Shown here: positions 8,772-53,498 of the stretch, in pieces
Position numbering within the stretch: position 1 is the first letter of the stretch
Layout: every line of letters starts with the position of its first letter
NCBI GenBank assembly: GCA_964628985.1
Contig: CAZVNJ010000009.1
Location: 66 to 64,065, forward strand
Source of the DNA: an uncultured Dehalococcoides sp.
Lineage (GTDB): Bacteria > Chloroflexota > Dehalococcoidia > UBA2979
DNA: 64,000 nucleotides
Direction: 5' to 3'
Made by a program: the position numbers and the translations under genes
The notes under the pieces: model-generated
The model's database searches: none
Seen by the model: the letters and a program-made list of their open reading frames with translations, nothing else
What the model was told of the DNA's origin: nothing

Positions 8772-10136
8772 ATGGGATGCACGTCGAGGTGCGCGATGGC
8801 GCTGCCGAGGGACACGGCACCGATGGATGTGGAGGAGCCAAAGCGGCTCCCCCTGCCCACACAGGTCTTTGGACACCGCTTCTACTACGGCTGGTACATC
8901 GTCGGCGTCGCCTTCGTCTCGTCGATGATGTCGATGGGCATCACCGCGTACTCCATGGGCGTCTTCCTCAAGCCCATGACGGATGACCTCGGCTGGTCGC
9001 GCACGGACATCTCTCTCGGCCAGACCCTCACGACCTTCGTCACGGGACTTCTGGGGGCCGCCATCGGACGGCGGATGGACGCACGAGGCGGCCGGGCGCT
9101 GATGGTCGGCGGCGCCGTCATCGGCGGCGCCGGATTCATCGCGCTCGGCCAGGTCCAGGAACTCTGGGAGTACTACCTCGTGCGGTCGGGGCTGGTGGCG
9201 GTCGGCTCGATTGGCATGGGCAACCTCGTCGTGAACGTCGCGCTGTCCAACTGGTTCGTGCGCCGTCGAGGGCGTGCGATCGCCCTCGGTGTGATGGGGA
9301 CCTCTGTCGCGGCACTGGTGCTCCCGACGGTGGCGGACCGGATGATCGACGCTTGGGGGTGGCGGTCGGCGTGGGCGGCGATCGGCGTGGCGGTGTGGGT
9401 CACCGTGATCCCCACAGCCCTGATCGCGATGCGGCGACGGCCCGAGGACTTTGGCCTGCTCCCGGACGGAGACGCGGCCCCCGTCGCCGGCGCGCCCGTC
9501 TCCGCGCGGGTGAGGGCGGACGTGCTCTGGACGCGCCATGCCGCCGCACGGACGCGCACGCTCTGGATGCTGATCGCGACCTTCGGGCTGGCCAGTACGG
9601 GGATGGGGGCACTCCTGCTGCACCTCATCCCCTACATGACCGACGAGGGGTTCACGCGGTCGCAGGCGGCGGGCGCCTTCGGCATGATCGGCATCTCCGG
9701 CCTGCTCTCCAAGCCGCTCTGGGGTGTGGCCATCGACCGCTTTCCGATCCGTCGATGTGCGGCCGCCGAGTTTGTGCTGATGGCGCTGGGGATCACGCTG
9801 ATCCTGGAGTCACACTCCGTGGTGCCGCTGTATGCCTCCGTCTTCACGATGGGACTGGGGATCGGCGGGGTCGTGACGGTACAGGAGGTGGTGTGGGCCG
9901 ACTTCTTCGGCCGCATGAGCCTCGGTACCGTGCGGAGCCTGGCACAGCCATTCACGATCGTGTCGAGCGCGGGCGGGCCGGTGTTCGCCGGCTTCGCGTA
10001 CGACCACTTCGGCTCCTACACGACGGCGTTCCACCTGTTCATCGCGACGTACGTGCTCGCCGCGATCATGATCACCCTGACGCCCGCTCCTCGACGTCCC
10101 GTGCAGGTGGTGCCGGCACCAGCGCCGGCTGGGTGA
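8772..10136 (+). CDS. MFS transporter (OFA/MCT-like); true start probably ATG 8796 or 8823
   Basis: FYYGWYIV, NWFVRRRGRA, RRRPEDFGLLPDG; about 12 TM. Confidence 0.88.
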   Translation: MGCTSRCAMALPRDTAPMDVEEPKRLPLPTQVFGHRFYYGWYIVGVAFVSSMMSMGITAYSMGVFLKPMTDDLGWSRTDISLGQTLTTFVTGLLGAAIGRRMDARGGRALMVGGAVIGGAGFIALGQVQELWEYYLVRSGLVAVGSIGMGNLVVNVALSNWFVRRRGRAIALGVMGTSVAALVLPTVADRMIDAWGWRSAWAAIGVAVWVTVIPTALIAMRRRPEDFGLLPDGDAAPVAGAPVSARVRADVLWTRHAAARTRTLWMLIATFGLASTGMGALLLHLIPYMTDEGFTRSQAAGAFGMIGISGLLSKPLWGVAIDRFPIRRCAAAEFVLMALGITLILESHSVVPLYASVFTMGLGIGGVVTVQEVVWADFFGRMSLGTVRSLAQPFTIVSSAGGPVFAGFAYDHFGSYTTAFHLFIATYVLAAIMITLTPAPRRPVQVVPAPAPAG

Positions 10137-10164
10137 GCCGTCGTCTCCGCCCCCGCGGCGCGCC

Positions 10165-10995
10165 CTACACCCCCGAGGTCCCGCTGAGGCCGTAGCGGTC
10201 GCCCTTCAAGCCTCGGACGGCGAGGTCCACCGCGGCGAGGCGGCGCTGGCCTTGCATCCGGGACTCGCCCTGCATGTACGAGGACCACGCCATGTAGTCG
10301 CCGAGGACGTCCTCGAGATGGCTCGTGTAGCCCTGGATGTCCTGCGCCTTGTTCATGGCGACCTTCGAGATGCGGACGGTCATCGGGTGGTTCTCGGCGA
10401 CGCGGCGGGCGTACGCGTAGGTCTCGCGTTCGAGGTCGGCCGGGTCGAGGACGCGGTTGACCATCCCGTAGTCGTGCGCCTCCTGCGCGGAGAGGAAGCG
10501 GCTCTCGAAGACCAGTTCCTTCGCGCGCTTCACGCCGAGGTCCCACGGCACGGACATGTACTCAATGAAGCCGGGGAGGAAGCGGGCGTCGCGGGCGGCG
10601 AAGACGAGGTCGAGACAACCGGCGAGCATCCACCCGGCGTAGATGCAGTATCCCTCCACCATGGCGATGGTCGGCTTGGGGAAGTTCCGCCAGCGCAGCA
10701 GCAAGTCCAGGTTGTACCGCTTGAACTGGTCGTACCGGTCGATGCCATCGACGGCGCCGAGCGACTCACGGTACGCGGCCCCCTCGGGGGTGCCGAGGTC
10801 GTGCCCCGAGGAGAAGTTGCCTCCGGAACCTCGGACGATGAGGACGCGGATCTCCTTGTCCTGCTCCGCCTGGTCGAACGCCAGCCCGACCTCGTCGAGG
10901 AGACGGTAGGACTGGGCGTTGCGGTACTGGGGGCGGTTGAGCCGGATGGTGGCAATCGGCCCATCCACTTCGTAGGTGATGTCTTCGTACGCCAT
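10165..10995 (-). CDS. Enoyl-CoA hydratase/isomerase family protein
   Basis: IRLNRPQYRNAQ, FSSGHDLG, KPTIAMVEG. Start at MAYEDITY. Confidence 0.88.
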   Translation of the reverse strand: MAYEDITYEVDGPIATIRLNRPQYRNAQSYRLLDEVGLAFDQAEQDKEIRVLIVRGSGGNFSSGHDLGTPEGAAYRESLGAVDGIDRYDQFKRYNLDLLLRWRNFPKPTIAMVEGYCIYAGWMLAGCLDLVFAARDARFLPGFIEYMSVPWDLGVKRAKELVFESRFLSAQEAHDYGMVNRVLDPADLERETYAYARRVAENHPMTVRISKVAMNKAQDIQGYTSHLEDVLGDYMAWSSYMQGESRMQGQRRLAAVDLAVRGLKGDRYGLSGTSGV

Positions 10996-11120
10996 CGTCA
11001 GCCTCCCGCAGTGAATCTGGTTGCTCCGCGCGCAGGGTACGACGGCTGCGGGACCGGCGTGACATGCGGGGCGGAAGGAGTACCGTGGCGGTGCGGTGGG
11101 TACCAATTGAGGGATGAGAC

Positions 11121-11486
11121 ATGACCTTCTCGGAATCAGTCCGCTCTGGATTCCAGAACTACGCAGTGTTCAAGGGCCGGACGGCTCGCAGGACCTTCTG
11201 GTACTGGGTGCTGTTCACGCTGATCCTCGGGCTCATTGCGAGCATCCTGGACAGCATGATGGGAGACACCCGACTTCTGCAGAGCGTCGTGGACCTGGCC
11301 CTGATCGTGCCGAACCTCGCGATCGGCGTCCGACGCCTGCACGACATCGGGAAGTCCTGGAAATGGATCCTGCTGGCGCTCATCCCCGTGCTCGGGTGGA
11401 TCTACCTCATCTACCTCTACATCCAGCCGAGCGAGGGTCCGAACGAGTACGGCGCAGCGCCGGACACCGCTCCAGCCGCGGCGTAG
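11121..11486 (+). CDS. DUF805 family membrane protein
   Basis: FKGRTARRTFW, VRRLHDIGKS, GPNEYG motifs. Confidence 0.9.
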   Translation: MTFSESVRSGFQNYAVFKGRTARRTFWYWVLFTLILGLIASILDSMMGDTRLLQSVVDLALIVPNLAIGVRRLHDIGKSWKWILLALIPVLGWIYLIYLYIQPSEGPNEYGAAPDTAPAAA

Positions 11487-11693
11487 CCGCCTCGCCCGTG
11501 TCGATGGACAGCAGCCGTCACTCGTGAGTGTGGCGGCCGGTTCGTTGTGCGGCGGACATCTCGTTTCATCGTCGCGGCTGCCGCCGCCCTCGTGCGCCCA
11601 CCCCAGCGGGGTCACTCCACCTTGACAGGCCGCGCGAGGCATCGGACGCTCCGCGCCTCGCGGGGGGCTTCCGCTGAGACAGGGGGATCCGAA

Positions 11694-12755
11694 ATGAAGA
11701 CACGTGCCGCCGTCCTCGTTGAGCACGGGCAGCCGCTCGCCGTCGAAGAGGTCGAACTGGGCAACCCGGGCCCGCTCGAGGTCCTGGTGAAGCTGTACGC
11801 CTCGGGTATTTGCCACTCGCAACTCCACCAGATCCACAACCCCGCCCAGCCGCGGCCGGCCCTGCTGGGGCACGAGGCGACGGGAGTCGTCGTCGCGAAG
11901 GGGCGGGACGTCTCGCACGTCAAGGAAGGCGACCGCGTCATGGTGACGTGGGTGCCGCGCGACATCACGCCGGAGACGGCGGCGCTCAAGCGCTCCTCGT
12001 TCGGCTTCCGCGGCGGCCAGCACGAGAACGGTGTCTACACCTGGGCCGAGCACGTCCTCACGCACGAGCAACTCGTGCTGCCGCTGGATGCCAGTGTCCC
12101 GATCGACGTCACGGCGATCATCGGCTGCGCGACCGTCACGGGCGTGGGTGCGGTGATGGGGACCGCTAAGGTGCAGCCGGGCCAGACGGTCGCCGTCTTT
12201 GGTGTCGGCGGTGTCGGGATCAACGTCATCGCGGGCGCCAAGATCGCGCGCGCTGGCAAGGTCATCGCGGTGGACCTGGCGGACGACAAACTCGCCTGGG
12301 CGAAGGAGTTCGGTGCGACCGACGTGGTCAACGGCAAGACCGATGACCCTGTGGCGGCGATCCGGTCGCTGACCGGAGGTGGCGTGGACTTCGCGTTCGA
12401 CGCCATCGGTATGGAGTCCGTGATCAACCAGTGCCTGGAGTCGATCATCCCGGGCGTGCTCGGCGCGCGTCGAGGCGGCACCGCCGTGGTCGTCGGCATC
12501 CCGCAGGGGCCGGTCACGCTGAAGCCTCGGCTGTTCCCGACCGGCGAGCGCCACCTCATCGGCTCGCTGGGCGGCTCCAGTCACCCGATCGAGGACTTCC
12601 CGCAGTACGTCGACTGGTACAAGCAGGGCGCGCTGCCCCTCGAGAAGATGGTGACCAAGGTCTACGAGGGTCTCGACCACATCAACGAGGGCGTGCGCGC
12701 GCTGGAGAAGGGCGAGATCACCGGGCGGTCGATCATGGTGTACGACCGGCCGTAG
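11694..12755 (+). CDS. Zn-dependent alcohol dehydrogenase family protein lacking the structural-Zn loop
   Basis: GICHS, LLGHEATG, IGCATVTG, VFGVGGVG. Confidence 0.88.
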   Translation: MKTRAAVLVEHGQPLAVEEVELGNPGPLEVLVKLYASGICHSQLHQIHNPAQPRPALLGHEATGVVVAKGRDVSHVKEGDRVMVTWVPRDITPETAALKRSSFGFRGGQHENGVYTWAEHVLTHEQLVLPLDASVPIDVTAIIGCATVTGVGAVMGTAKVQPGQTVAVFGVGGVGINVIAGAKIARAGKVIAVDLADDKLAWAKEFGATDVVNGKTDDPVAAIRSLTGGGVDFAFDAIGMESVINQCLESIIPGVLGARRGGTAVVVGIPQGPVTLKPRLFPTGERHLIGSLGGSSHPIEDFPQYVDWYKQGALPLEKMVTKVYEGLDHINEGVRALEKGEITGRSIMVYDRP

Positions 12756-12863
12756 AGGGAGCGCGGATGTCCGCGCGAACCCACCAACATGCGTCCGCAC
12801 CGTCCGAACCCGTCCTGCAGCGGCGGAGATGGATCAATGTGGCGGTCGCCTGGAGGGGTCAAG

Positions 12864-14654
12864 ATGGTTGACGCTGGTCAGCGCGCGAGACTTCTCGTCG
12901 TCCTCACAAGTCCCGAGCACTGGGAGCGCCTTCGCGAACTCGTGCTGCGACTCTGCCTGGGCGGCCAGGGCGACGCTCACCTCGTATTGCCGCGTCGCGT
13001 GAGCGCGGCGAATGGCGACGAAGACGACGAACCGGCCTGGTTCATCGAGGCCGTTGAGTGGCTCGCGGCGCGAGAGGTCTCCGCTGATTGCACGGTGGCC
13101 GTCGGACAGAGTTTCGAGGGGATCGTGCGGACCGCCGTCGCTGGTCCCCAACTTGATTCGCTGCTGCTCAGATGGCCGCCCAGGTCGGGCGGTGCGAGCG
13201 AGCGCGAGGGGATCCGTCAACTGATGGGGCATCCCCCGTGCCGGACCATGCTGCTCCTTGGAGCGGAGTGCGAACTCGATTGGCAGCGCACCGCGAGCAT
13301 CCAGTTGGGAGTGCCGGAGGACGCAGTCGTCCCAGGTCTGGCTGCGCGGATCGCCGCGGGCGATACCGGCGATCCACCGGCTGGCGGTCCAGCTCTGACG
13401 TCCACGGAGAGTGAGGCGTTGCGTGGCGAGCGCATGTCCTGGCGGACGCTGGATGCGATGCAGTCTGAGGACGACCAGCGGCTCGTGGTGGCAGGGATTC
13501 CGCGGATAGGTGTGATCCGGCGTCTGGCCCATCCCGATGTCAGGCCGGAGCGGATGGACGGGCGCCTGAAGCCCCTGCTCGTGGTGAGTGACCCACAGGG
13601 GGTGACGTCCTCCGTGGTCCATCGCCTGGTTTCGTCGCTCTCCGCGATCCTGCCAACTCTGTCCGAGGAACGGAAGGTGCTGACTTACCGGGAACTGCGA
13701 CGTTCCGCGCGGCCGGACAAAGATTTCTACGTGATGATGTCTCTGGCGGCAGGGATCGCAACGCTGGGGCTCATCCTGAACAGTCCCGCGGTGGTCATTG
13801 GGGCAATGCTGGTAGCGCCGCTGATGGCGCCGATCGTGGCATCCGGCCTCGGCGTGATTCAGGGGGACATGCCTCTGCTGAAGCTCTCCGTCCGCACGAT
13901 CTGGGGAGGGACGGCTGCCACCGCTGTGGTGAGCGTGACCCTGGGGTTGCTCACCCCGGGCGCCAAGCTGACGCCGGAAGTGATGGCCCGCGCGCATCCG
14001 AGCCTTCTCGACCTCTTCGTTGCGGTGTTCGCTGGCGCGGCCGCCTCGTACGCGATGTCGCGCGAACGGGTATCAGCCGCGCTGCCCGGGGTGGCTATCG
14101 CGGCTGCCCTCGTCCCTCCCCTATCGAGCGCGGGCGTCGCGCTCTCCCAGGGCGACCTCGAGACAGCGGAGCGCGCGGCGCTCTTGTATTGCGCAAACCT
14201 GTTGGCAATCGCTGGGGCCGCGACTGTGACATTCCTCGGACTGGGCTTCCGACCAGAACCGGAGCGCACGGGGCGTCTTCGGGTTGCTGGTCGCGGCGCG
14301 ATGGGCCTCGGGCTGCTCACCGTCATGGTCGCCGTCCCGCTGATCTGGCTGTCCAATGACGCGATTCGCTCGGCGCGGCTCGAGCAGCGGATCTCTACGC
14401 AAGTGTCCGAGGCCGTTGCCGCGAGCGTCAGCGGCTCATCCGGCGTCGACTTCGACCTGAAGCGCAGGTCTGGTGGTGGTCGAGAACTCACACTCCGTCT
14501 GCGAGTAGACCATCCGCTTACTCAGGAAGAGAGATCTGCACTGCGAGACGCCCTGATGGAGCGCATTGGAGCCTCGACCACAGTGCTGCTTGAGGTTACT
14601 CCGGTGCTCCGACTGACAGCGACCCCGGGCGACTCGGTGAAACCAGCACCCTGA
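12864..14654 (+). CDS. DUF389 (TIGR00341-like) membrane protein with N-terminal soluble domain
   Basis: NSPAVVIGAMLVAPLMAPI, SAALPGVAIAAALVPPL motifs. Confidence 0.82.
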   Translation: MVDAGQRARLLVVLTSPEHWERLRELVLRLCLGGQGDAHLVLPRRVSAANGDEDDEPAWFIEAVEWLAAREVSADCTVAVGQSFEGIVRTAVAGPQLDSLLLRWPPRSGGASEREGIRQLMGHPPCRTMLLLGAECELDWQRTASIQLGVPEDAVVPGLAARIAAGDTGDPPAGGPALTSTESEALRGERMSWRTLDAMQSEDDQRLVVAGIPRIGVIRRLAHPDVRPERMDGRLKPLLVVSDPQGVTSSVVHRLVSSLSAILPTLSEERKVLTYRELRRSARPDKDFYVMMSLAAGIATLGLILNSPAVVIGAMLVAPLMAPIVASGLGVIQGDMPLLKLSVRTIWGGTAATAVVSVTLGLLTPGAKLTPEVMARAHPSLLDLFVAVFAGAAASYAMSRERVSAALPGVAIAAALVPPLSSAGVALSQGDLETAERAALLYCANLLAIAGAATVTFLGLGFRPEPERTGRLRVAGRGAMGLGLLTVMVAVPLIWLSNDAIRSARLEQRISTQVSEAVAASVSGSSGVDFDLKRRSGGGRELTLRLRVDHPLTQEERSALRDALMERIGASTTVLLEVTPVLRLTATPGDSVKPAP

Positions 14655-14716
14655 CCGACACGATGGGTGAGAGTCATCCGAGGCCAGTCGGCCTAATCCT
14701 CAGTTGCCCACCAGCC

Positions 14717-15766
14717 TTACTCCTCGATCGGACCTGAACGGCATCCGGTCACGCCGCCAGCCCACCCAGCCTCGTTGTAGAGGGTGGAGTCGCCGAAGTA
14801 GGCCTCCCAGTCCGCCATGAGCCGGCCGAGGATCGCGAGTTGCGTCGTGCGTACAGCCGGGTCGAAGTAGGCGTACGGGCACACGTGCAAGGGACGGCCG
14901 TTGTTGCCTGAGCCGGTGAGGATTCCGAATTCGACGAGGCCAAGTCCGGCGCTGCCCTGGCTGTTCAGCGGCCCGACCTCTGCAATCACCTGACCGACCG
15001 CCACGCGGTCGCCAGCGCGCACCGTCGGCTTGACGACGTGCTCGAATTCGACCACCACGTAGCAGCGCCCTGCGAGGCCGTCCGGCTTCACCATCACCGA
15101 GACGTCGCCGAGTGTCGGCGTGCTCCAGAGATCCGCAATGCGGTCGACGACGCCGTCGACCGCTGAGCGCACCTTGGTCCCCATCGGCGCGAGGTAGGTG
15201 GGCTGTGGGTTGGGCTTGTCGTTACCGGAAGAGGTGGAGGCGGCAGGGATGACGAAGCCAAACTCTGTATAGACACGATTGAGGAAGAGGGGGCGCGCGA
15301 ACCGAGCGTCGCCGGCGCGACCGGTGGATGCGTCATACGGCGCGAGGTCTATCGGGTGGCGTTTGAGGACGGGCGCGACGCAATCGATGCCGACAGTTTG
15401 CCCGCTGGGGCCGCCCGCCTGGCCGGGCGGCGGAGCCGGAGGGGTGCTGCCTGCACCGGAAGGCGTGTTCGGCGTGGAGCTGAGTGGTGGGCTCGGTGCT
15501 GGGCTCGGTCTCGGGCTCGCTGCGTTCGGTGAGGTGCCCTCGGCGCCCGTCGGGCGTGGGGAGGAGGCGCCGGGTGTGCCGGGAGTGGCAGTGGTGCGGG
15601 CAGCCTCGATGTTGGAGGAGCCGAGGGCTGCGGGGGTGGCGTCTGAGGTGGTGTCCACGGTGGTCGAGACGCCCTCGCTACTGCAGGCGGCGAGCAGCAG
15701 CGCGAGGGCGCCGACGAAGAGGGCGCTCCGGGCGACCGTGGGGCGCGCAGGCGCGCGCGCGGGCAT
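14717..15766 (-). CDS. Lipoprotein with S/T/P/A-rich linker and degenerate M23/LytM-like domain
   Basis: LLAAC lipobox; APMGTKVRSAVDGVV and VRAGDRVAVGQVIAEVG are M23-like, but the Zn-ligand motifs are missing. Confidence 0.65.
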   Translation of the reverse strand: MPARAPARPTVARSALFVGALALLLAACSSEGVSTTVDTTSDATPAALGSSNIEAARTTATPGTPGASSPRPTGAEGTSPNAASPRPSPAPSPPLSSTPNTPSGAGSTPPAPPPGQAGGPSGQTVGIDCVAPVLKRHPIDLAPYDASTGRAGDARFARPLFLNRVYTEFGFVIPAASTSSGNDKPNPQPTYLAPMGTKVRSAVDGVVDRIADLWSTPTLGDVSVMVKPDGLAGRCYVVVEFEHVVKPTVRAGDRVAVGQVIAEVGPLNSQGSAGLGLVEFGILTGSGNNGRPLHVCPYAYFDPAVRTTQLAILGRLMADWEAYFGDSTLYNEAGWAGGVTGCRSGPIEE

Positions 15767-15769
15767 GGG

Positions 15770-16948
15770 CTACGCGCTCGCGTCCTGCGTGCTGCCTCGG
15801 AGGGCCGGAAGCGCCGTGGCGATCGCGAGGAGGATCGCGAGGCCCATGATCGGCGTGCCAACCTGCTTGAGCGGCGCCGACTCCGCGAGCAGGCCGACGA
15901 TGAAGATGGGCAGGCCCACGTTGATCCCGGCGAAGACGAGGTGATCCACGACCGGCGCCACCGGGCGTCGGAAGCGCATGACGAGCGCGAGGATCCCGTT
16001 CGTCATGACGCCGATGAAGATCGAGTGGTCGAGCGCGAGCAGCAGGTGCGTCGGCGGATCGAGCTCTTTCGAGAAGTACTTGCCGATGAGGTAGACAAGG
16101 ATGCCGAGGTTCACGATGAGGAAGACGAGCGCCATGGCGCCGTGGCGGGCTGTGCCGGCAGTCATGAACGACGGCGACATGAGCGGGCCTCGCAGCCGGA
16201 CGATGAGGATCACGAGGCCGATGATCTCGAACGGCAGGCTGAAGGTGACGAGCGGGACGATGTCGGCGAGCAGTCCGATGATGACCAGGATGCCGCCCAG
16301 GAGCGGTAGGCCGATCTGGAACCAGCCTGCGCGCGTGGCTCGTCGGAGCACCGATCCTGGATCGAGGGCCCACTCGATCAGCGCCATGCCGACGGGTACG
16401 AGGAAGCCGACGACCATGGCGGCGGGGTGGGCCTCCGCGGTCGTCTCCGGGATGCCGTCCGAGCCGGCCAGGCGTAGGCCAAGCAGGATGCCGAGGATGG
16501 CGCCGAGGACGGACATCAGGACCGCGGCGAGCATGCCGATGTGCGGGACGCTGAGGGTCCGTCCTCCAGCCTGGCGGACGCACCATCCGAACATCGCGAG
16601 GATGACGAGCCCGACGAGGGTGCCGAGGATGGGGCGCATGACGCCGTAGGTGGTGAGGAAGGCGAGCGCGTAGCCCGCGATGGTGAGCGGGGCGGCGTAG
16701 CCGATGAATCGTGCGAAGCCGGCGTCTGTGCCCGGGGCATCGCCGAGGGCGAACAGCCAGAGGGCGGAGGCGAACACGCCGAGGGTGATCCACCCGAGCG
16801 TGCCGACGTGGACATGGGTGAGGAGGACCTTGCGGTCGAACTCCACTGCATCAATACCGTTGAGGATGCCGATGACGACAGTGACGGTAAAGAGGGCGAG
16901 GGCGGCGGAGAGGAGCAGGCGTACCTGCGCGGCGTGCGGGCTGGCCAT
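15770..16948 (-). CDS. Uncharacterised ~12-TM protein with membrane histidines
   Basis: Highly hydrophobic; HVHVGTLGW, EAHPAAMVVGF and LDHSIFIGVM motifs. Confidence 0.7.
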   Translation of the reverse strand: MASPHAAQVRLLLSAALALFTVTVVIGILNGIDAVEFDRKVLLTHVHVGTLGWITLGVFASALWLFALGDAPGTDAGFARFIGYAAPLTIAGYALAFLTTYGVMRPILGTLVGLVILAMFGWCVRQAGGRTLSVPHIGMLAAVLMSVLGAILGILLGLRLAGSDGIPETTAEAHPAAMVVGFLVPVGMALIEWALDPGSVLRRATRAGWFQIGLPLLGGILVIIGLLADIVPLVTFSLPFEIIGLVILIVRLRGPLMSPSFMTAGTARHGAMALVFLIVNLGILVYLIGKYFSKELDPPTHLLLALDHSIFIGVMTNGILALVMRFRRPVAPVVDHLVFAGINVGLPIFIVGLLAESAPLKQVGTPIMGLAILLAIATALPALRGSTQDASA

Positions 16949-19971: not shown

Positions 19972-20673
19972 CTACTTGATGCGCTCCGCGCGGACGATCA
20001 GCCGGCTGGCGTACTTGTGGGTTTCTGGGTCGAACTTCCCGCTGCAGGTGAAGAGAGTGATCGAGTCCACCTTCACGTTGCTGCTCCAGTACTGACTCCA
20101 GTCAGTGCCCTCAGCCGGTACCTGCTCAGCCCAGACGACTGAGTACTTCAGCGTCTGCCCGTTGATCTCGATGTCGATGCGGTCCCCGGCGCCCAGTTGG
20201 TCGAGGTCCCAGAAGACAGCTGGGCCGGTGTAGCGTTGGCCGACAGACTCGATCACTCGGTTGAGGTCTGCATGGGCGCCAAAGACGGCGTTTTTCCCGC
20301 TCCCGGGGTAGCCGCCGTGGCCGGGGAAGGCGGAGAGGTCGTACCAGGCGACGTCGACGGCGCTATATGGCTCGGGCATCGCATCTCCCGCGACCGCCCA
20401 GGCGCCCACCGGCGCATTGACGCCGATCGCGGGGATCTTGAGCCGCGCGAAGTCAGTGCCCTTCGGTTCTCCATACTTCTTCGTCCACGTGGTGACGGAG
20501 TCCTGCACCCGAGCCGGGTCGTTCCCGGCCGACGGTACGCCCGCGGCGGAACCCTTCGATGTAACGGAGATGCCGTCCCCACCCAGTTGGCCGGTGGCGA
20601 CGAGGACGGCGCTCAGCAGCGCGACGCCGCCGATGACAGCGAGGATGAGCATCTGGGCCTGGCGGGTCATCAC
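19972..20673 (-). CDS. Sortase (class F-like)
   Basis: N-terminal anchor, VAWYD, NAVFGAH, ITLFTC and RLIVRA give the His/Cys/Arg triad. Confidence 0.82.
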   Translation of the reverse strand: MMTRQAQMLILAVIGGVALLSAVLVATGQLGGDGISVTSKGSAAGVPSAGNDPARVQDSVTTWTKKYGEPKGTDFARLKIPAIGVNAPVGAWAVAGDAMPEPYSAVDVAWYDLSAFPGHGGYPGSGKNAVFGAHADLNRVIESVGQRYTGPAVFWDLDQLGAGDRIDIEINGQTLKYSVVWAEQVPAEGTDWSQYWSSNVKVDSITLFTCSGKFDPETHKYASRLIVRAERIK

Positions 20674-22366: not shown

Positions 22367-23353
22367 CTAGACGCCGACGAGGTGCAAGTGGCCGCGTCGC
22401 GGCGCTGTGCGTTGCCCTCCCCCGACCACGGCGTTGAGGACGGGTGGGGCGGTGACGCCCTCAAGGGCTGCCTCGAACGACCGCAGGAGGTCCGCTTCCG
22501 CGAAGAGATCCGCCGGCTCGATGCCGCCTCCGGCGATGGTGTCCAGCGCCTCGGAGACCGCGAGCGCCGTCGAGTCCGCCGGGACGAGCGGCACCGTCAC
22601 GATGCTGCCGCCTGTGCGCGTCGCCAGGGTGCCCCCGTAGGCGTCCCCGGTACCGGTAATCGTCGTGGTGAAGGAGGAAAGGACCACCTCGATGGCCAGG
22701 TGTTGAGACTGGCGCGCCGTGAGCAAGGCGGTTGTGCCGTCGTTGAATTCGACCTCCGTGACGATGGCCTGTGCTCGGCCGCGCGGCGGGCCATAGGCGT
22801 GCGCGACAACGCTCCGTGCGTGGGTGCCAGCGAGATGCGCCGCCAGCGTGGTCAGATCCCCGGCTGTGAGGCGCAGGTCCTCGGGTGTGTCGACCGTGAT
22901 CGAGGCGGTCCGCAGACGGGCAAGACTCCGGGCGGCCTGCATGGCCGCGGTGATCGGTGCCTGGTGCCAGAGCGGTCGAAGGACGGCGGCGGAGCCTCCG
23001 GTGCGCGCAAGCATCGCCAGCGTGTCAGGTTCCAGGGCGTCGCCTGTCAGCAAGACAGCGCTGCCGCGGCTGGCGGCGGCTGCGGCCTCCGTGGCGGCGT
23101 CGAAGAGGTCGAGCAGGACGGTCGAGCCCGGCCCTCGGCGGAGCATCTCGCGCGGGTGCTGGTAGCGCGCCGTGCAGGTGAGGCGGCCTCTGAGGGCGAT
23201 TGACGCGGCGGCGAGGGAAGCAGCCGACGGGTCACCGATGGCGACCGGGACGAACCGCTGCGCCTCGAGCGCGCGCAGGAGGGCAGGAGTGCGCTCGGTC
23301 CATCCGCAGATGGCGAGCGTGTCCAGCGTGGATGCGCCGAATGGAGCCTGCAT
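22367..23353 (-). CDS. Hypothetical protein with degenerate Gfo/Idh/MocA-like architecture, divergent from fliC1
   Basis: Rossmann-like N-terminus (LAICG...VAIGD) and beta-rich C-terminus, but no EKP motif. Start ATG 23353. Confidence 0.5.
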   Translation of the reverse strand: MQAPFGASTLDTLAICGWTERTPALLRALEAQRFVPVAIGDPSAASLAAASIALRGRLTCTARYQHPREMLRRGPGSTVLLDLFDAATEAAAAASRGSAVLLTGDALEPDTLAMLARTGGSAAVLRPLWHQAPITAAMQAARSLARLRTASITVDTPEDLRLTAGDLTTLAAHLAGTHARSVVAHAYGPPRGRAQAIVTEVEFNDGTTALLTARQSQHLAIEVVLSSFTTTITGTGDAYGGTLATRTGGSIVTVPLVPADSTALAVSEALDTIAGGGIEPADLFAEADLLRSFEAALEGVTAPPVLNAVVGGGQRTAPRRGHLHLVGV

Positions 23354-23514
23354 GGGGGGACGGTAGGAGCGAGCAACCGTGGCGCTGCATGGGGGAGACC
23401 CTGAGAGGTGAGGGTTGCGGAACCTGATCTCCCGCGCCGGTGCTCCTGTCGCCGGATCGCAGCGTGCGCACCGGTTCGAGGGTCGAGGTCCGGCAACACG
23501 TTTTCCCGGAGGCC

Positions 23515-23541
23515 TAAAGGCGGGTGGGTGGCTGCCGATGA
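23515..23541 (+). promoter_or_regulatory. Sigma28 (FliA/SigD) promoter of fliC1
   Basis: TAAA-N15-GCCGATGA matches the TAAA-N15-GCCGATAA consensus with one mismatch. Confidence 0.85.
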
Positions 23542-23636: not shown

Positions 23637-24833
23637 ATGGCAATGATCATCAACACGAACATCGCTGCCCTGAACGCGCAGCGGAACCTGGGCACCACCA
23701 GCGCCCAGATGGGGAAGACCCTCGAGAAGCTGTCCAGCGGTCTGCGCATCAACCGCGCCGCGGACGACGCTGCCGGGCTGGTCATCTCCGAGAAGATGCG
23801 TGCCCAGATTCGAGGCATGCAGCAGGGTCTGCGGAACGCCCAGAACGGCGTCTCGATGCTGCAGACCGGTGAAGGCGCGCTGAACGAGGTGCACAGCATC
23901 CTCGGCCGCGTGCGCGAACTCGCTGTCCAGGCCAGCAACACCACCCTCTCCGCTTCGGACCGCGAGGCCATCGGTGAGGAAATGCTGGCCCTGCGCTCTG
24001 AGATCGACAACATCGCCACCCGTACCCGCTTCAACGGCCAGAGCCTCCTGAACGGATCGCTCGCGGTGACGCTGGACGCGGCGAACTCGACCGCGGACAC
24101 GGTGACGTACGCCAACGGTGGCGCGACGACCTCGGTCTCCTCGATCAACGTGGCGGACGCCACGGCTGGCGAGACCTACACGTTCTCGGCAGCCGGTGCG
24201 GTCCTGACCCTCACGCACGACGACGGCAACGGCTTCGTGCGGACGGAGACGGCCACGGTCCAGGCGATGGGCGCCAGCGGTTCGCAGGCGGTCATCTTCG
24301 AGGAACTCGGCGTCACCCTGAACCTGTCGCACGACGCGAACGCCGCCAACCACACGGGTGCGAACATCGCCAACGCCTTCGCCGCCACCACCGTGGTGAC
24401 CACGGGCAGCGGCAACGCCTCCTTCCGCGTGGGTGCGGATGTCGGTGACGACATCTCGCTGGCGTTCTCGGACATGCGCTCCAGCGCGCTGGGCAACGGT
24501 TCCAAGCTGAACACCCTGATCGCCGCGAACGACGCCGTGTCGACGGTGGCGAAGGCGGACACCCTGCTCGCGTCGGTGGACGCGGCGATCGACCAGGTGT
24601 CGACCTTCCGAGCGAAGATTGGTGCCCGGCAGAACCAGCTCGATGTGGCGACGAACTCCCTCGGCGTCTCGATCGAGAACCTGTCGGCGTCGGAGTCGCG
24701 CATCCGCGACGCGGACATCGCTGAACTGTCCAGCCAGATGATCACCAAGCAGATCATCCAGCAGGCCGGTGTGGCGGTCCTCGCGCAGGCCAACGCGGCC
24801 CCGCAGGCGGTGCTCTCGCTCCTCCGCGGGTAG
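23637..24833 (+). CDS. fliC: Flagellin (copy 1)
   Basis: INTNIAALNAQRNL, LSSGLRINRAADDAAGL, ENLSASESRIRDAD, VLAQAN. Confidence 0.97.
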   Translation: MAMIINTNIAALNAQRNLGTTSAQMGKTLEKLSSGLRINRAADDAAGLVISEKMRAQIRGMQQGLRNAQNGVSMLQTGEGALNEVHSILGRVRELAVQASNTTLSASDREAIGEEMLALRSEIDNIATRTRFNGQSLLNGSLAVTLDAANSTADTVTYANGGATTSVSSINVADATAGETYTFSAAGAVLTLTHDDGNGFVRTETATVQAMGASGSQAVIFEELGVTLNLSHDANAANHTGANIANAFAATTVVTTGSGNASFRVGADVGDDISLAFSDMRSSALGNGSKLNTLIAANDAVSTVAKADTLLASVDAAIDQVSTFRAKIGARQNQLDVATNSLGVSIENLSASESRIRDADIAELSSQMITKQIIQQAGVAVLAQANAAPQAVLSLLRG

Positions 24834-24856
24834 CCCGTCCTCGGACGCAGCATCGG

Positions 24857-24890
24857 GAGGCCCCTGCCGTGAGGTGGGGGCCTCTTCGTT
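24857..24890 (+). terminator. Intrinsic terminator after fliC1
   Basis: gaggcccctgcc-GTGA-ggtgggggcctc followed by ttcgtt. Confidence 0.7.
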
Positions 24891-24913
24891 GCACTCTGTT
24901 CGCGAGGAGGGGG

Positions 24914-24952
24914 CGGGATTCTCCCGATGGGCGGCCCGCGCTGGCGCCGACA
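24914..24952 (+). promoter_or_regulatory. Conserved upstream motif plus sigma28-like -10 (methyltransferase promoter)
   Basis: GGGATTCTCCCGA-N18-GCCGACAG. Confidence 0.6.
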
Positions 24953-24994: not shown

Positions 24995-26296
24995 ATGGTC
25001 GCCGTCGAGCCGACGCGCACGCAGGCCGTGCGCGAGTCCGTCCACCAGCAGTACGAGTCGCTGCCATATCCGGCCCGCGACCCGGAAATGGAACTCGATC
25101 GGCTGCTCCAGCCAACGATGTGCGAACTACCGCGGGTGAACGCGATGCTCTGGGGCGGCCGGCGTGTCTACGACTCGACCTTCCGCATCCTGGACGCCGG
25201 CTGCGGCACGGGCGATGCCACGGTCTTCATGGCAGAGCAACTCCGAGATACCGGTGCCCGGCTGGTGGCGCTCGACCTGTCCTCGGCCTCGCTGAGCATC
25301 ACGCGGCGACGCCTGGAGAAGCGCGGGCTCGAGGGCGTCGTGGACCTCGTGCAGGCGCCGATCGAAGAGGCGCCGGGGCTGGGTCTCGGGCAGTTTGACT
25401 TCATCTCGACGTCCGGCGTGCTGCACCATCTGCCTTCGCCGGAGATCGGGCTGCGGGCGTTGCGTGAGCTGCTGAAGCCGGACGGTGCGATCGCGGTCAT
25501 GGTGTACGCGAAGTACGGTCGTGAGCCGGTGTACCTCATGCAGTCGCTGCTGCGGATGGTGGCGCCCGCCGAGTTTGGCGAGGAGCGCCGCCTCCGCATC
25601 CTGAAGCGGTCGCTCCAGGCATTGCCGTCTGAGCACCGGGGCGTCCGTGGGTTGTTGGACACCCCACTCTTCAACGCCGAGATCGCCCGGTCGGACGCCG
25701 GGGCCTACGACCTGCTGCTGCACTCGCAGGATCGGCCATACACGGTGCCCGAGATCTATGACTGGTTGAGCGGCGCAGGCATGCGGTTGCTCGATTGGGG
25801 CGTGCCGAAGGCGTACCGCCCGTTGACGTACTGGCCGGGCGCGGATCTCTCGCATCTCCCGGCAGAGGATCACGCGGTTGCGGCGGAACTGATGCACGGC
25901 CGGATGACGAAGCACCACTTCTTCGCCGTGCCAGCCGAGGCCTCGCCCCCCACCCAGCCAGCTGCCGACGATCCTTCCACGGTACCGACGTGGACGGCCT
26001 GGCAGTTCGACGTCCCCCTGGGACAGGCGCTCGCGCGGCCGGGGACACAGTTGAAGTTCGGAATGGGCGAGGACCGTCAGATCGTCGTGAATGGGGATCC
26101 GCTCAATCGCCGTCTCCTGGGCGCGATCGACGGGCACCGCGACGTGGGCACGATCCTGGAGGAGGCCTGGCGGGCCTTCCCCGCCCAGACGCCAGAGCAG
26201 ATCCGGCGTCGCTGGGTGGAGTTGTGCGAGGGGATGCGGGAGATCGCGGCCCTCGTGCTGTTCCGTCCCGCCGCCTCGTCCGGCCGGCCAGGCTAG
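24995..26296 (+). CDS. Class I SAM-dependent methyltransferase with C-terminal extension
   Basis: ILDAGCGTG motif I, SGVLHHLPSP, QYESLPYPARDP N-terminus, DLLLHSQD. Confidence 0.85.
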   Translation: MVAVEPTRTQAVRESVHQQYESLPYPARDPEMELDRLLQPTMCELPRVNAMLWGGRRVYDSTFRILDAGCGTGDATVFMAEQLRDTGARLVALDLSSASLSITRRRLEKRGLEGVVDLVQAPIEEAPGLGLGQFDFISTSGVLHHLPSPEIGLRALRELLKPDGAIAVMVYAKYGREPVYLMQSLLRMVAPAEFGEERRLRILKRSLQALPSEHRGVRGLLDTPLFNAEIARSDAGAYDLLLHSQDRPYTVPEIYDWLSGAGMRLLDWGVPKAYRPLTYWPGADLSHLPAEDHAVAAELMHGRMTKHHFFAVPAEASPPTQPAADDPSTVPTWTAWQFDVPLGQALARPGTQLKFGMGEDRQIVVNGDPLNRRLLGAIDGHRDVGTILEEAWRAFPAQTPEQIRRRWVELCEGMREIAALVLFRPAASSGRPG

Positions 26297-26339
26297 AGGC
26301 CGACCTTCAGGAACCGTCGCCGCCGTCGAGTATGGCGGT

Positions 26340-26576
26340 ATGACGCTCTCGATGCCCTGCGACGCCTGTAGCACGCCGCTGCGCCGTGACGTGGTGACGG
26401 TCAAGTTCACCACGAGCAGCGTGTCGTTCGGGACGGGCGGGCACACGCGACTCACACCCAACAGCCGTCAGGAGTATGTGGTCTGCCAGCGCTGCGCCTC
26501 CTATCTACAAGCGTGCATCGCGATGCTCGAGGGGCGCGTGAGCGCAGAGCCGCACAGTGTGAGGGAGATGGTCTGA
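26340..26576 (+). CDS. 78-aa putative zinc-ribbon protein A
   Basis: CDAC-x38-CQRC followed by an amphipathic helix. Confidence 0.65.
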   Translation: MTLSMPCDACSTPLRRDVVTVKFTTSSVSFGTGGHTRLTPNSRQEYVVCQRCASYLQACIAMLEGRVSAEPHSVREMV

Positions 26577-26821
26577 TGAGCCCATCCTTCTCCGCGTGCG
26601 ACCTCTGCCTGAGCAGCCTGGAGGGCCAGGTGACGGAGGTCCAGATCGCCCCGGCCCGGATGGTGCAACTGACCGAGGAGGGCAGCATTGCCCATCACTC
26701 GACGGGCCTGCGCAGTCTGAGGCTCTGCCTCCCGTGCGGCGACTACCTGGTGGCGGGGTTCGAGCGGCTGCTGAACGCGTACGGCCGTGGGCTCCCGGAG
26801 CCGGAGCGCCTCGCGGGTTAG
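26576..26821 (+). CDS. 81-aa putative zinc-ribbon protein B (probable paralog of A)
   Basis: CDLC-x39-CLPC followed by a helix; TGATG stop/start overlap with protein A. Confidence 0.65.
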   Translation: MSPSFSACDLCLSSLEGQVTEVQIAPARMVQLTEEGSIAHHSTGLRSLRLCLPCGDYLVAGFERLLNAYGRGLPEPERLAG

Positions 26822-30732: not shown

Positions 30733-30754
30733 TGCCGATCGCGCGGAGGGACGC

Positions 30755-30793
30755 GGGGTCTCCCTGATCCCGGCGGTCCGCCTGTTCCGAAAT
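30755..30793 (+). promoter_or_regulatory. Conserved upstream motif plus degenerate sigma28 -10 (fliC2 promoter)
   Basis: GGGGTCTCCCTGA-N18-TCCGAAAT. Confidence 0.5.
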
Positions 30794-35909: not shown

Positions 35910-36605
35910 ATGGCTCAGTCCACCCCCGTTACCCGTCGGCACCGTCGAGGCACGCGCTGGGCCGCCGGAAGCGCGGTCCTGGTGCTCGCCTCCGTCACTG
36001 GCTTCGTGATGGCCGGCACGGGCATGGAGGCCGGGCCCATCTCCTCGGCCCAGCGCCAGGCTGCTGAGGGGGCGGCCGCCCGGATCGTCGCCGGCGGTGG
36101 CACCCGACCACAGGCCCAGGGCTGGCGGCCGGCATCTGTCGCCGAGTCCAACCCGATCGAGTTCGCAAAGGGCGGGAAGGTCCTGACCACCGCCTTCGCC
36201 AACCGTGTCGTCATCCGATCGGTCGGCATCGACGTGCAGGTGCAGCCCGTCGGCCTCGTCTTCACGCAGGGCAAACTGCAGTACGACGTCCCCTATGTGG
36301 AGGCCGGCCAGTACGTGGGCACCGCCCAGCCGGGCCGGCCGGGGAACGCCGTCATCGGCGGGCACGTGTCGAGGCGCGGCGCACCGGGTGTATTCGCGGC
36401 CCTGCCGAAAGTCGTCGCCGGGGATGTGGTGGAGGTCTTCAGGGGCGAACAAGTCTTCCGATACTCCGTAACAGAGATTCGCGTCGTCGCATCGGATGCG
36501 ACGAGCGTGATGAGTCAAACGCAGGATGCGACCTTGACGCTCATCACCTGCTTCCCAGACGACGGCCTGCGTGAGCGGCTCGTCGTGGTCGGGAAGTTGA
36601 TGTAG
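35910..36605 (+). CDS. Sortase within the flagellar operon
   Basis: N-terminal TM, PGRPGNAVIGGH, TLTLITC, RLVVVG. Confidence 0.85.
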   Translation: MAQSTPVTRRHRRGTRWAAGSAVLVLASVTGFVMAGTGMEAGPISSAQRQAAEGAAARIVAGGGTRPQAQGWRPASVAESNPIEFAKGGKVLTTAFANRVVIRSVGIDVQVQPVGLVFTQGKLQYDVPYVEAGQYVGTAQPGRPGNAVIGGHVSRRGAPGVFAALPKVVAGDVVEVFRGEQVFRYSVTEIRVVASDATSVMSQTQDATLTLITCFPDDGLRERLVVVGKLM

Positions 36606-47400: not shown

Positions 47401-48537
47401 ATGGGTGCTGAAGCAGAAGGCCTGGCCCGGCTCTCGCGCTTCGCGGAGCGGATCCCCGCTGGCCGCCTGGTCTATGACCAGGGCGAGATCCCTCAGCGCA
47501 TCGTAGTTGTCCTCCAGGGGCGCCTCCAGTTCGAGGTGGTGGGAGACGACGGCAGCGTCTCCATCGTCGGTTCGGTCGAGCCCGGTCAGATGGCCGGCCA
47601 CATCGCCGCCGTGAACGCGCGCCCCACCTCCGCGGCCGCGCGGGCGCAGGACGAGACCATCCTGCTCGCGATCCCACTGCGCTCACTCGCCGAAGCGTTC
47701 CAGGATGCCCCCGGGCTCGCGCTCCAACTTTCAGACGCGCTAAACAACGCCGGCCGCGGGGGACACACCAACTCATCCGGCGATCCACAGCGTCGAGCAG
47801 CCCACGACGCCATCGTGATCCCCGTCCCGCGCCCCGTGGACGAACAGTTCTTCTTCATTGATACGGCGGACTGCCCGGTCTGTGACGCGGCCTTCGAGTA
47901 CCTGCGCATCCGCACGCGAGGTGTGCGGCCGGCCCAGCGCGATTCTGACCTGCGGGTCGCCTACACGACCATCGATCCCACCTGGTATGCCGTCGTGACC
48001 TGTCCGAAATGTTCCTTCGCCTCCTACCGGGACGACTTCTACGCCGTCTCCGACGACGAACGTGCCCGGTTGGAGGCTGGCACCGAGGAACGGCGGGAAC
48101 TCTGTTCGTCGCCGCTCACTGGGCCGCGCTCCAGCGAGCATGCACAGCTCACGCTCGAGCTTGCGATGCTCTCGTATGCCCGCCGCCGTCCAAACGAGCG
48201 CCGGCAGGCCGTCCTCCTCCACCGGCGCGCGTGGATCGCCCGCGCCAACGGGGACACCGCCGAGGAGATGGTGTGGCTCGAGCGTGCGCGGGACGCGTAC
48301 CAGCGCGCCTACGAGGGCGACCCGGACGTCTCTGACGAAGGCGCCCTCCGTGCCGCCTACCTGATTGGTGACCTCACGCTCCGCCTCGGGGACCCGCTCA
48401 CTGCCGGTCGGTGGTTGGAGGTCTGCCTGAAGACCGGCGCCGGCGAGCAGAGCGGCCTCGTCCGCATGGCCCGCGACCGCCTCCACGATGCGCGCGAGGC
48501 GGCCAAGGGCCTCACCGAGTCGGCGGCAGCCTCCTGA
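47401..48537 (+). CDS. cNMP-binding domain fused to DUF2225-like Zn-binding/helical domain
   Basis: YDQGE...VVLQGRL cNMP-fold N-terminus; CPVC...DSDLR...Y.VVTCPKC.FA and GDL.LRLG C-terminus. Confidence 0.72.
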   Translation: MGAEAEGLARLSRFAERIPAGRLVYDQGEIPQRIVVVLQGRLQFEVVGDDGSVSIVGSVEPGQMAGHIAAVNARPTSAAARAQDETILLAIPLRSLAEAFQDAPGLALQLSDALNNAGRGGHTNSSGDPQRRAAHDAIVIPVPRPVDEQFFFIDTADCPVCDAAFEYLRIRTRGVRPAQRDSDLRVAYTTIDPTWYAVVTCPKCSFASYRDDFYAVSDDERARLEAGTEERRELCSSPLTGPRSSEHAQLTLELAMLSYARRRPNERRQAVLLHRRAWIARANGDTAEEMVWLERARDAYQRAYEGDPDVSDEGALRAAYLIGDLTLRLGDPLTAGRWLEVCLKTGAGEQSGLVRMARDRLHDAREAAKGLTESAAAS

Positions 48538-53162: not shown

Positions 53163-53498
53163 ATGGTCACAGCAAAGAAGCCCGCTGCGAAGAAGCCGGC
53201 CGCCAAGAAGCCGGCTGCAAAAAAGCCGGCGGCGAAGAAGCCGGCCGCGAAGAAGCCCGCGGCCAAGAAGACCGCGGTCAAGAAGACAGCGGCCCGAAAG
53301 CCGGCGGCCAAGAAGCCCGCCGTCAAGAAGGCCGCGGCGAAGAAGCCCGCTGCAAAGAAGGCGGCGGCGAAGAAGTCCGCTGCCAAGAAGGCAGCGGCGA
53401 AGAAGCCAGCGGCTCGCAAGACCGCTGCGAAGAAGCCAGCGGCGCGCAAGCCCGCTGCGAAGAAGCCGGCGGCGCGCAAGCCCGCCGCCAAGAAGTAA
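53163..53498 (+). CDS. Histone H1-like Lys/Ala/Pro repeat protein
   Basis: MVTA + 21 x (K/R)K(P/T/A/S)A(A/V) + KK; flanked by a strong promoter and a terminator. Confidence 0.85.

Follow-up and report, generated by a model that had tools for sequence, protein, structure and literature searches.

Deletion of HVO_2753 or HVO_0758, the genes of two C(P)XCG one-domain zinc-finger micro-proteins of Haloferax volcanii, leads to less swarming and to lower levels of motility and chemotaxis transcripts (PMC6562870, PMC10716476). In function, these proteins are the closest parallel to a zinc microprotein with a link to motility, as the products of genes A and B may be. The two genes lie next to each other in a 64,000-nucleotide stretch of DNA (the window) from an uncultured Dehalococcoides sp. 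of the Chloroflexota (contig CAZVNJ010000009.1, positions 66 to 64,065, forward strand). Like A and B, the haloarchaeal proteins are very small and contain four Cys residues (Cys4) in CxxC(G) knuckles. However, they are archaeal, act on the archaellum system and are encoded by single genes, not by obligate pairs of paralogs. When all PDB chains were searched with the A1 and A3 profiles, nothing came up at E ≤10, so no homology of A or B to HVO_2753 or HVO_0758, which have solved structures, was detected, and the likeness is one of pattern only.

Two bacterial regulators were also compared with the pair. FlhC is a Cys4 zinc protein in the heteromeric FlhD4C2 complex, the enterobacterial flagellar master regulator; it is about 190 amino acids (aa) long, pairs with the unrelated FlhD, binds DNA, in complex with FlhD at class II flagellar promoters, and acts at the top of the hierarchy. 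In contrast, A and B are about 80 aa long, have a paralog as partner, do not match the FlhC model and, judged from the DNA upstream of A, are apparently expressed in the manner of late genes. FlgM is disordered, Cys-free and secreted. A and B resemble FlgM-type anti-sigma-28 factors in their small size, their place in a flagellar locus and their apparent sigma-28-type promoter, whereas they look like folded metal-binding domains and do not match the FlgM family. Neither protein gave a match to FlhC (PF05280) or FlgM (PF04316) at E ≤1.

The analysis showed that A and B are real genes under purifying selection and that they form an undescribed family, whose members come from just a few lineages of Chloroflexota and whose defining feature is the obligate A/B pair. 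For the function of the pair, we give about an even chance to a motility-associated Cys4 A-B heterodimer that would act via protein-protein contacts. Gene A (26340..26576, + strand) encodes a 78-aa protein, MTLSMPCDACSTPLRRDVVTVKFTTSSVSFGTGGHTRLTPNSRQEYVVCQRCASYLQACIAMLEGRVSAEPHSVREMV, in which C7-D-A-C10 is followed by 38 residues, C49-Q-R-C52 and then ASYL; a semi-conserved C59 is also present. Gene B (26576..26821, + strand) encodes an 81-aa protein, MSPSFSACDLCLSSLEGQVTEVQIAPARMVQLTEEGSIAHHSTGLRSLRLCLPCGDYLVAGFERLLNAYGRGLPEPERLAG, in which C8-D-L-C11 is followed by 39 residues, C51-L-P-C54 and then GDYL. An earlier reading of the locus, made from its letters alone (the sequence-only reading), had described the shared architecture as CDAC-x38-CQRC-ASYL and CDLC-x39-CLPC-GDYL, and translation bore out every detail. 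It had also described the two genes as joined by TGATG (26574..26578, + strand). This can be read directly in the junction, ggtcTGATGagc, where the TGA stop codon of A (26574-26576) and the ATG of B (26576-26578) have 1 nucleotide (nt) in common. The mechanical list of open reading frames (ORFs) places the starts too far upstream, at 26091 and 26513, as that reading had noticed. The starts were set at 26340 and 26576 because all orthologs begin with the conserved N-termini MTL... (A) and (M/V)SPSF... (B).

The GC content at third codon positions (GC3) was 0.85 for A and 0.91 for B, which is typical for genes of this genome (the GC content of the window is 68.6%). Among 5.8 billion proteins, 5 homolog clusters were found for A and 20 for B, all with at least 64% identity and with the four Cys invariant. 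The lower count for A arises because gene callers leave A uncalled in most public contigs, in which tblastn located it directly before B. Pairwise ratios of nonsynonymous to synonymous substitution (dN/dS) ranged from 0.10 to 0.37 in A and from 0.06 to 0.23 in B at a dS of about 1. An alignment of 26 A- and B-type sequences, some of which have no more than about 25-30% identity, showed all four Cys without exception. Homologs and conserved Cys, whose absence would have spoken against the sequence-only reading, were both found. High-GC DNA is rich in spurious ORFs and gene callers often miss A, but the probability that A and B are chance ORFs in GC-rich sequence rather than genes is virtually nil: the conservation is at the protein level, with saturated synonymous change and low dN/dS, and the Cys persist in relatives at about 30% identity. 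These conservation data had already led to the rejection of chance ORFs.

The whole family comprises about 43 clusters among the 5.8 billion proteins and is therefore very rare, and all of its named members are entries for a 'hypothetical protein' from metagenome-assembled genomes (MAGs) of Chloroflexota or 'Dehalococcoidia'. Metagenomes from sand filters, groundwater and bioreactors contain the window sequence. No plasmid relatives were found in a search with B and no phage relatives in a search with A, and a metagenome scan with the QQRW subgroup re-found only one locus of the set analyzed here (L021).

The relationship between A and B was not apparent at first sight. BLASTP detected no significant similarity between them, and alignment of the narrow A and B family profiles by hhalign gave a probability of just 9.9%. 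With the B profile as query, an exhaustive HMMER search that covered 1.84 billion representatives recovered about a dozen further small proteins of 62-87 aa and about 30% identity, which keep the CDxC...CxxC-x-YL layout. Four large repeat-type matches to B (P0026, P0027, P0034 and P0037), with multiple repeated short stretches, were treated as spurious; the two that were inspected, P0026 and P0037, are tandem-repeat proteins. When the B-type profile included the distant members, its alignment with the A family reached an hhalign probability of 97.2% (E 3e-11, 68 columns), and a diverse A-type profile against the B-type profile reached 98.3% (E 2e-14). The homology became visible because the profiles had been broadened with distant relatives, and BLASTP and the narrow profiles are blind to it. 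These profile alignments show that A and B are paralogs, and the word 'paralogous' in the sequence-only reading, which BLASTP and the narrow profiles left without support, proved justified. In a neighbor-joining tree of 32 sequences the A-type and B-type proteins were reciprocally monophyletic (191/200 bootstraps) with mirrored internal topologies, which therefore points to an old duplication followed by co-inheritance.

The two genes were also found to behave as a unit. Wherever the flanking DNA was readable, an A-type gene (71-93 aa) directly preceded a B-type gene, as was seen in the window and in the loci L001, L008, L009, L010, L014, L015, L018, L021, L023, L025, L027 and L028 of relatives. 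The two genes overlap by 1 or 4 nt in twelve pairs, which come from about five lineage groups (ATGA or GTGA, 4 nt, in the orthologs and 1 nt in the window), and in L028 the genes are separated by a 2-nt gap. The stop/start overlap suggests translational coupling, and the Shine-Dalgarno-like sequence GAGGGAGA (26562..26569, + strand), located inside the conserved 'REM' codons of the tail of A, may serve the initiation of B. In L011, from the SURF_43 MAG, A and B are fused in frame in a 160-aa ORF (9752-10234), which is represented in NCBI by RJQ11846.1, called as a 143-aa hypothetical protein. One family member on a 586-nt contig (P0035) seems to have no upstream partner gene. Coupled translation, two co-diverging subfamilies and one fusion are what a 1:1 heterodimer predicts, and on this pattern A and B likely assemble as such. 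The heterodimer proposed in the sequence-only reading is thus in keeping with the conserved, coupled paralog pair and with the A-B fusion, which fit the prediction and are not proof of a dimer.

Next to sequence conservation, the fold and the bound metal of the two proteins were considered. Neither A nor B matched a family in Pfam or NCBIfam. When 27 members (12 A-type and 15 B-type) were scanned singly at E ≤10, no family recurred, and there were only scattered sub-threshold matches to zinc ribbons or zinc fingers; FlhC, FlgM and rubredoxin (PF00301) were not among the listed matches (top 25 families). Membership in a known unrelated family, which would have spoken against the sequence-only reading, was thus not found in Pfam, NCBIfam or PDB. 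The AlphaFold2 models are of low confidence, with a predicted local distance difference test (pLDDT) score of 56 for A and 50 for B. Each model has short strands, and a helix at its C-terminal end starts from the second CxxC (residues 50-68 in A), an arrangement that may resemble a treble clef. A Foldseek search of the A model against PDB gave only noise with E >1, such as the Lsr2 dimerisation domain and eS21. Both proteins contain two CxxC knuckles built from four invariant Cys, which is the generic mark of zinc-ribbon and Cys4 proteins, and from this pattern they probably bind zinc in a zinc-ribbon or treble-clef-like fold. As in generic zinc ribbons and treble clefs (Zn_ribbon_3, DZR, Zn_ribbon_8), the two knuckles may be spaced by beta-hairpins, and the second would lead into a helix. 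In contrast, the spacer of 38-39 residues, the CDxC and CxxCxxYL signatures and the obligate pairing are specific to A and B. The isoelectric points (pI) are mostly 4.3-8.5, so that the proteins are mostly neutral to acidic and neither subunit is consistently basic.

The genomic surroundings of the pair link it repeatedly to motility genes. In the window, a flagellar cluster of about 26 kb has at its edge the flagellin gene fliC1 (23637..24833, + strand; Pfam Flagellin_N and Flagellin_C), a methyltransferase gene, A and B, and the order FliC1-methyltransferase-A-B is kept in L001, L008, L009 and L011. L010 has the order FliC1-A-B-flavin reductase, without the methyltransferase and without the hydrolase that follows B in the window. 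In L021, L023 and L025 the pair is located directly downstream of the gene of a 940-aa methyl-accepting chemotaxis protein (MCP) and is convergent with a CheR-CheB-CheY-CheD-CheC-CheA-CheW operon, and in L027 it is located downstream of FliM and is convergent with the same che operon.

The pair was also truncated in both flagellum-less relatives. L005 has lost the gene of a 332-aa hypothetical protein, FliC1, the methyltransferase, A, the SLT/M23 gene and everything from FliC2 to the DUF2225 gene. L012 has lost the 332-aa gene, FliC1, the methyltransferase, A and everything from FliD to the DUF2225 gene, and its FliC2 is frameshifted. Of the pair, only a 5'-truncated B remains in these loci (residues 29-81 or 20-81), from which the first CxxC is gone, and beside it the hydrolase, flavin reductase and PDZ genes are intact. 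The deletions in L005 and L012 have different boundaries. Flagella are regarded as ancestral in Dehalococcoidia, with repeated partial losses (PMC10284905), which matches the loss patterns of L005 and L012. Co-occurrence with flagellar genes, which the sequence-only reading had named as a check, is therefore recurrent as far as synteny shows, with three arrangements and with loss in L005 and L012, but it is not universal.

The DNA upstream of A was then compared with that upstream of FliC1. A clear sigma-28-type promoter, CTAAAG-N14-GCCGATGA (23514..23541, + strand), is located about 97 nt before the FliC1 ATG and is kept in six loci as CT[AC]AA[GTC]-N14-GCCGATGA-TGGC. The FliC1 stop codon is followed by a very stable hairpin (24855..24890, + strand; -41.6 kcal/mol, z -3.4). 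It is likely a terminator, which speaks against the view that A-B transcripts arise chiefly by simple read-through. Two conserved blocks immediately before A form a promoter-like element, CTTCAG-N14-GTCGAGTA (26305..26332, + strand), with the layout of the FliC1 promoter; GTCGAGTA ends 7 nt before the ATG of A and is followed by TGGCGGT and then ATG. The element is conserved in register in 12/14 loci. The 8-mer is GCCGAAGA in orthologs, GCCGATGA in L014 and L027, GTCGATGA in L028 and [AG][CT]CGAGGA in L021, L023 and L025, and in all of these it ends 7 nt before the ATG. A position weight matrix (PWM) built from the six FliC1 promoters alone placed the site upstream of A in about the top 10 of 128,000 window positions, and it scored the ortholog sites higher, always at the same offset. 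The composite pattern CT..A.-N14-G[CT]CGA..A had no match in the window besides the FliC1 promoter and the site before A, with 0.10 matches expected. In 572 kb from loci that had played no part in its construction it gave four matches, and two of these lie upstream of the che operon (L021 and L023). Compared with the sigma-28 type TAAA-N15-GCCGATAA, the -35 part of the A element is imperfect. We infer that A-B may be transcribed from a sigma-28-like promoter of its own and that its mRNA may be leaderless or nearly so. Scans for consensus sigma-70 promoters and for terminators in the 22-29.5 kb region gave nothing, and no terminator-like fold was found after B. A possible CCGCC/GGCGG hairpin upstream of A was dropped from consideration, since by eye it is not maintained in L011.

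Together, the synteny, the loss alongside flagellar genes and the sigma-28-like element suggest a link between the pair and motility. In the mechanism that we propose, an ancient duplication would have given rise to the A/B pair of small Cys4 proteins, probably zinc-ribbon or treble-clef-like. The pair would belong to the late flagellar and chemotaxis gene set of these Chloroflexota, and a sigma-28-like promoter would start transcription at or next to the ATG of A. This would yield one short bicistronic transcript, on which initiation of B would be coupled to termination of A and the two proteins would be produced 1:1. A and B would then assemble as a metal-stabilised 1:1 heterodimer, which would serve the motility system as a small regulator or adaptor that binds other proteins, and not as a DNA-binding activator.

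Several observations weigh against this mechanism. The models are of low confidence (pLDDT 56 and 50) and Foldseek gave nothing beyond noise, so that the fold, the metal and the dimer stand as predictions. The composite pattern for the promoter is partly circular, since some of the sites that it matched had gone into it, and the purine-rich GA[AGT]GA may, alternatively, be a weak Shine-Dalgarno sequence. The ORF in L011 could be a Rosetta-stone fusion or else an assembly indel. The MCP and FliM arrangements have the che-operon side in common and so are not fully independent. The losses in L005 and L012 may stem from a single ancestral loss of motility, or the deletions may have hit a dispensable neighbor by accident. 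In addition, some loci show no motility gene near the pair. The genes of L015-17 are arranged as DEAD-box helicase-pair-ChsH2/thiolase-Dus, and in L014, L018 and L028 an MgtE gene and a double Zn_ribbon_TFIIB gene (- strand) precede the pair, which is followed by hydrolase or flavin reductase and by SLT/M23. The latter arrangement equals the window locus minus the upstream flagellin. The contigs without a motility gene near the pair are mostly short and the sample is small. The motility association is thus recurrent and not universal.

These loci bear on the main rival, a zinc-ribbon pair with a function unrelated to motility, whose position would reflect inherited synteny or coincidence; we regard it as unlikely, though it deserves serious consideration. 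It gains from the loci just named and from the segment pair-(hydrolase)-flavin reductase-SLT/M23, which is conserved with or without an upstream flagellin, and the family is too small for strong statistics. However, it does not readily account for three different motility neighbors (flagellin; MCP with che; FliM with che), for the truncation of the pair in both flagellum-less relatives while non-flagellar flanking genes survive, or for an upstream element that resembles flagellin and che promoters. In the same loci we observed a 148-aa conserved protein with two Zn_ribbon_TFIIB domains, encoded divergently from the pair (L014 3-284, L018 729-1175 and L028 1263-1709, all - strand) and followed by the MgtE-like transporter gene; it is a second small zinc-ribbon protein in this neighborhood.

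The flavin reductase gene near the pair raises another explanation, in which A and B would be a rubredoxin-like Fe(Cys)4 redox pair working with this enzyme. The gene is directly downstream of the pair in L010 and L018/19, whereas in the window one gene lies between them, and fusions of flavin reductase domains with rubredoxin are known. Judged by pattern, CxxCG-type knuckles cannot tell an Fe(Cys)4 site from a Zn site, and there was one sub-threshold match to the 'DVU_1557 family redox protein' (E 0.077). However, no rubredoxin was found among the listed matches at E ≤10, L005 and L012 keep the flavin reductase and have lost the pair, and the enzyme gene is not adjacent in L015 and L021-L027; in the window a hydrolase gene on the opposite strand intervenes. 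We therefore see only a slim chance for a redox pair.

The gene directly upstream of A (24995..26296, + strand) encodes a class I methyltransferase of the Rv2067c/PKMT-like type, assigned from Pfam and PDB, in which its best match is 8hkr_A (Mycobacterium tuberculosis Rv2067c; E 1e-29). Its C-terminus gave a weak match to the PKMT winged-helix domain PF21782. From these matches it is best explained as a protein lysine methyltransferase, and its substrate is possibly flagellin; given where its gene lies, it may methylate lysines of flagellin, in analogy to FliB. The sequence-only reading had considered A and B as an adaptor of this enzyme. The Rv2067c-type family takes extended peptide substrates (PMC10739865), which together with the winged-helix-like C-terminal domain and the start of A 43 nt after the methyltransferase stop codon would suit an adaptor or a substrate. 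A has also diverged more than B in L010, from which the enzyme is missing (49% vs 71% identity). However, L010 keeps an intact A-B pair under selection next to flagellin, and no such gene is located directly beside the pair in distant lineages. A role as substrate is further opposed by the few lysines of A (one in the window copy) and their absence from B. The idea of an adaptor did not hold up as a general explanation, and a role as adaptor or substrate of the methyltransferase is very improbable. A reading of the small proteins as precursors of a peptide that is synthesized on ribosomes and modified after translation (RiPP) was considered because 8HKR, the closest PDB homolog of the methyltransferase, is listed among the reference structures of a paper on RiPP recognition elements (RREs) (PMC12710340). 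It was rejected: no other RiPP enzymes were noticed among the neighbors, A and B have the look of conserved folded domains, and the pair persists without the methyltransferase.

We also examined whether A and B could be an FlhC-like DNA-binding activator of flagellar genes, which the sequence-only reading had put forward as a speculative candidate for the factor that binds a recurrent GGG..CCCGA motif. That motif probably corresponds to the GGG..CTCCCGAT / GGGGTCTCCCTGAT-like motifs observed at about 24903-24928 and 30752-30775 (+ strand), upstream of the methyltransferase and FliC2. Cys4 proteins encoded in a flagellar locus are what this idea has in its favor. However, no FlhC or other DNA-binding family was matched in the 27 members scanned, and neutral or acidic small proteins without a DNA-binding signature argue against an FlhC-like activator. 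The size of about 80 aa and the paralogous, not FlhD-like, partner differ from FlhDC, and FlhD was not found in the annotated parts of the window. The CCGAT core of the motif resembles a sigma-28 -10 element, as do the CCGAT-type motifs at the locus in general; the motif is absent upstream of A, where the element fits a sigma-factor promoter and not an activator site. This part of the sequence-only reading is not sustained, and an FlhC-like activator is hardly credible.

Returning to the motility-associated heterodimer, a more specific version can be outlined, to which we give a small probability. A-B would be a late-regulon regulator specific to Chloroflexota, that is, a zinc-dependent partner of sigma-28/FliA, which might sense redox state or metals and would stand in for FlgM in these monoderm flagellates, or else a new small adaptor between filament and chemoreceptor; it would be made from a leaderless sigma-28-dependent mRNA.

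The gene order of the window locus was as follows. The gene of the 332-aa hypothetical protein (- strand) is followed by FliC1, the methyltransferase, A and B. After B come an alpha/beta hydrolase gene (- strand) and the genes of the flavin reductase, the SLT/M23 protein and a PDZ protein; then FliC2, a 114-aa ORF, FliD, FliS, FliT/FlgN and a sortase; and finally FliF, FliG, FliH, FliI, FliJ, FlgB, FlgC, FliE, FliK, FlgD, a putative flagellar protein, FlgE and a protein with a cyclic-nucleotide (cNMP)-binding domain and DUF2225.

Some of these neighbors were of interest in themselves. The 332-aa protein (22367-23365, - strand) has no Pfam match, is encoded divergently from FliC1 and shows about 54% identity in flagellated relatives; its gene was deleted together with FliC1 in L005 and L012, which makes it another candidate for a flagellum-linked unknown. 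The gene with the cNMP-binding domain fused to DUF2225 (47401-48537, + strand) ends the flagellar cluster right after FlgE and was lost with it in L005 and L012; its product may be a cyclic-nucleotide-responsive motility factor. Two sortase genes are present (35910-36605, + strand, and 19972-20673, - strand), the first of which sits between FliT/FlgN and FliF inside the flagellar cluster, an unusual company. A 111-aa low-complexity protein (53163-53498, + strand) matches the histone H1-like HC2 family (E 9e-18). The loss of the flagellar island in L005 (about 9800-14700) and L012 (about 9300-16600) consists of several separate deletions, with a truncated B, a frameshifted FliC2 or a 41-aa fragment of it, and part of an NHL gene as remnants. 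The two loci are a natural gene-loss experiment, which could help to tell which genes are flagellar.

Flagella in Chloroflexota were confirmed recently, in Tepidiforma, and the searched part of the text of that paper contains no mention of FliA, FlgM, CsrA or FliW (PMC10284905). If the link to motility is false, A and B would be an undescribed small Cys4 family of narrow taxonomic range and of modest interest. How gene callers overlook genes of this kind is seen from A, which they left out in most public contigs, and A and B neatly illustrate the retention of a duplicated microprotein as a heterodimer-like pair. As a lineage-specific pair that travels with flagellin, chemoreceptor, switch and che genes, A-B would be a testable candidate for a missing regulatory or assembly factor.

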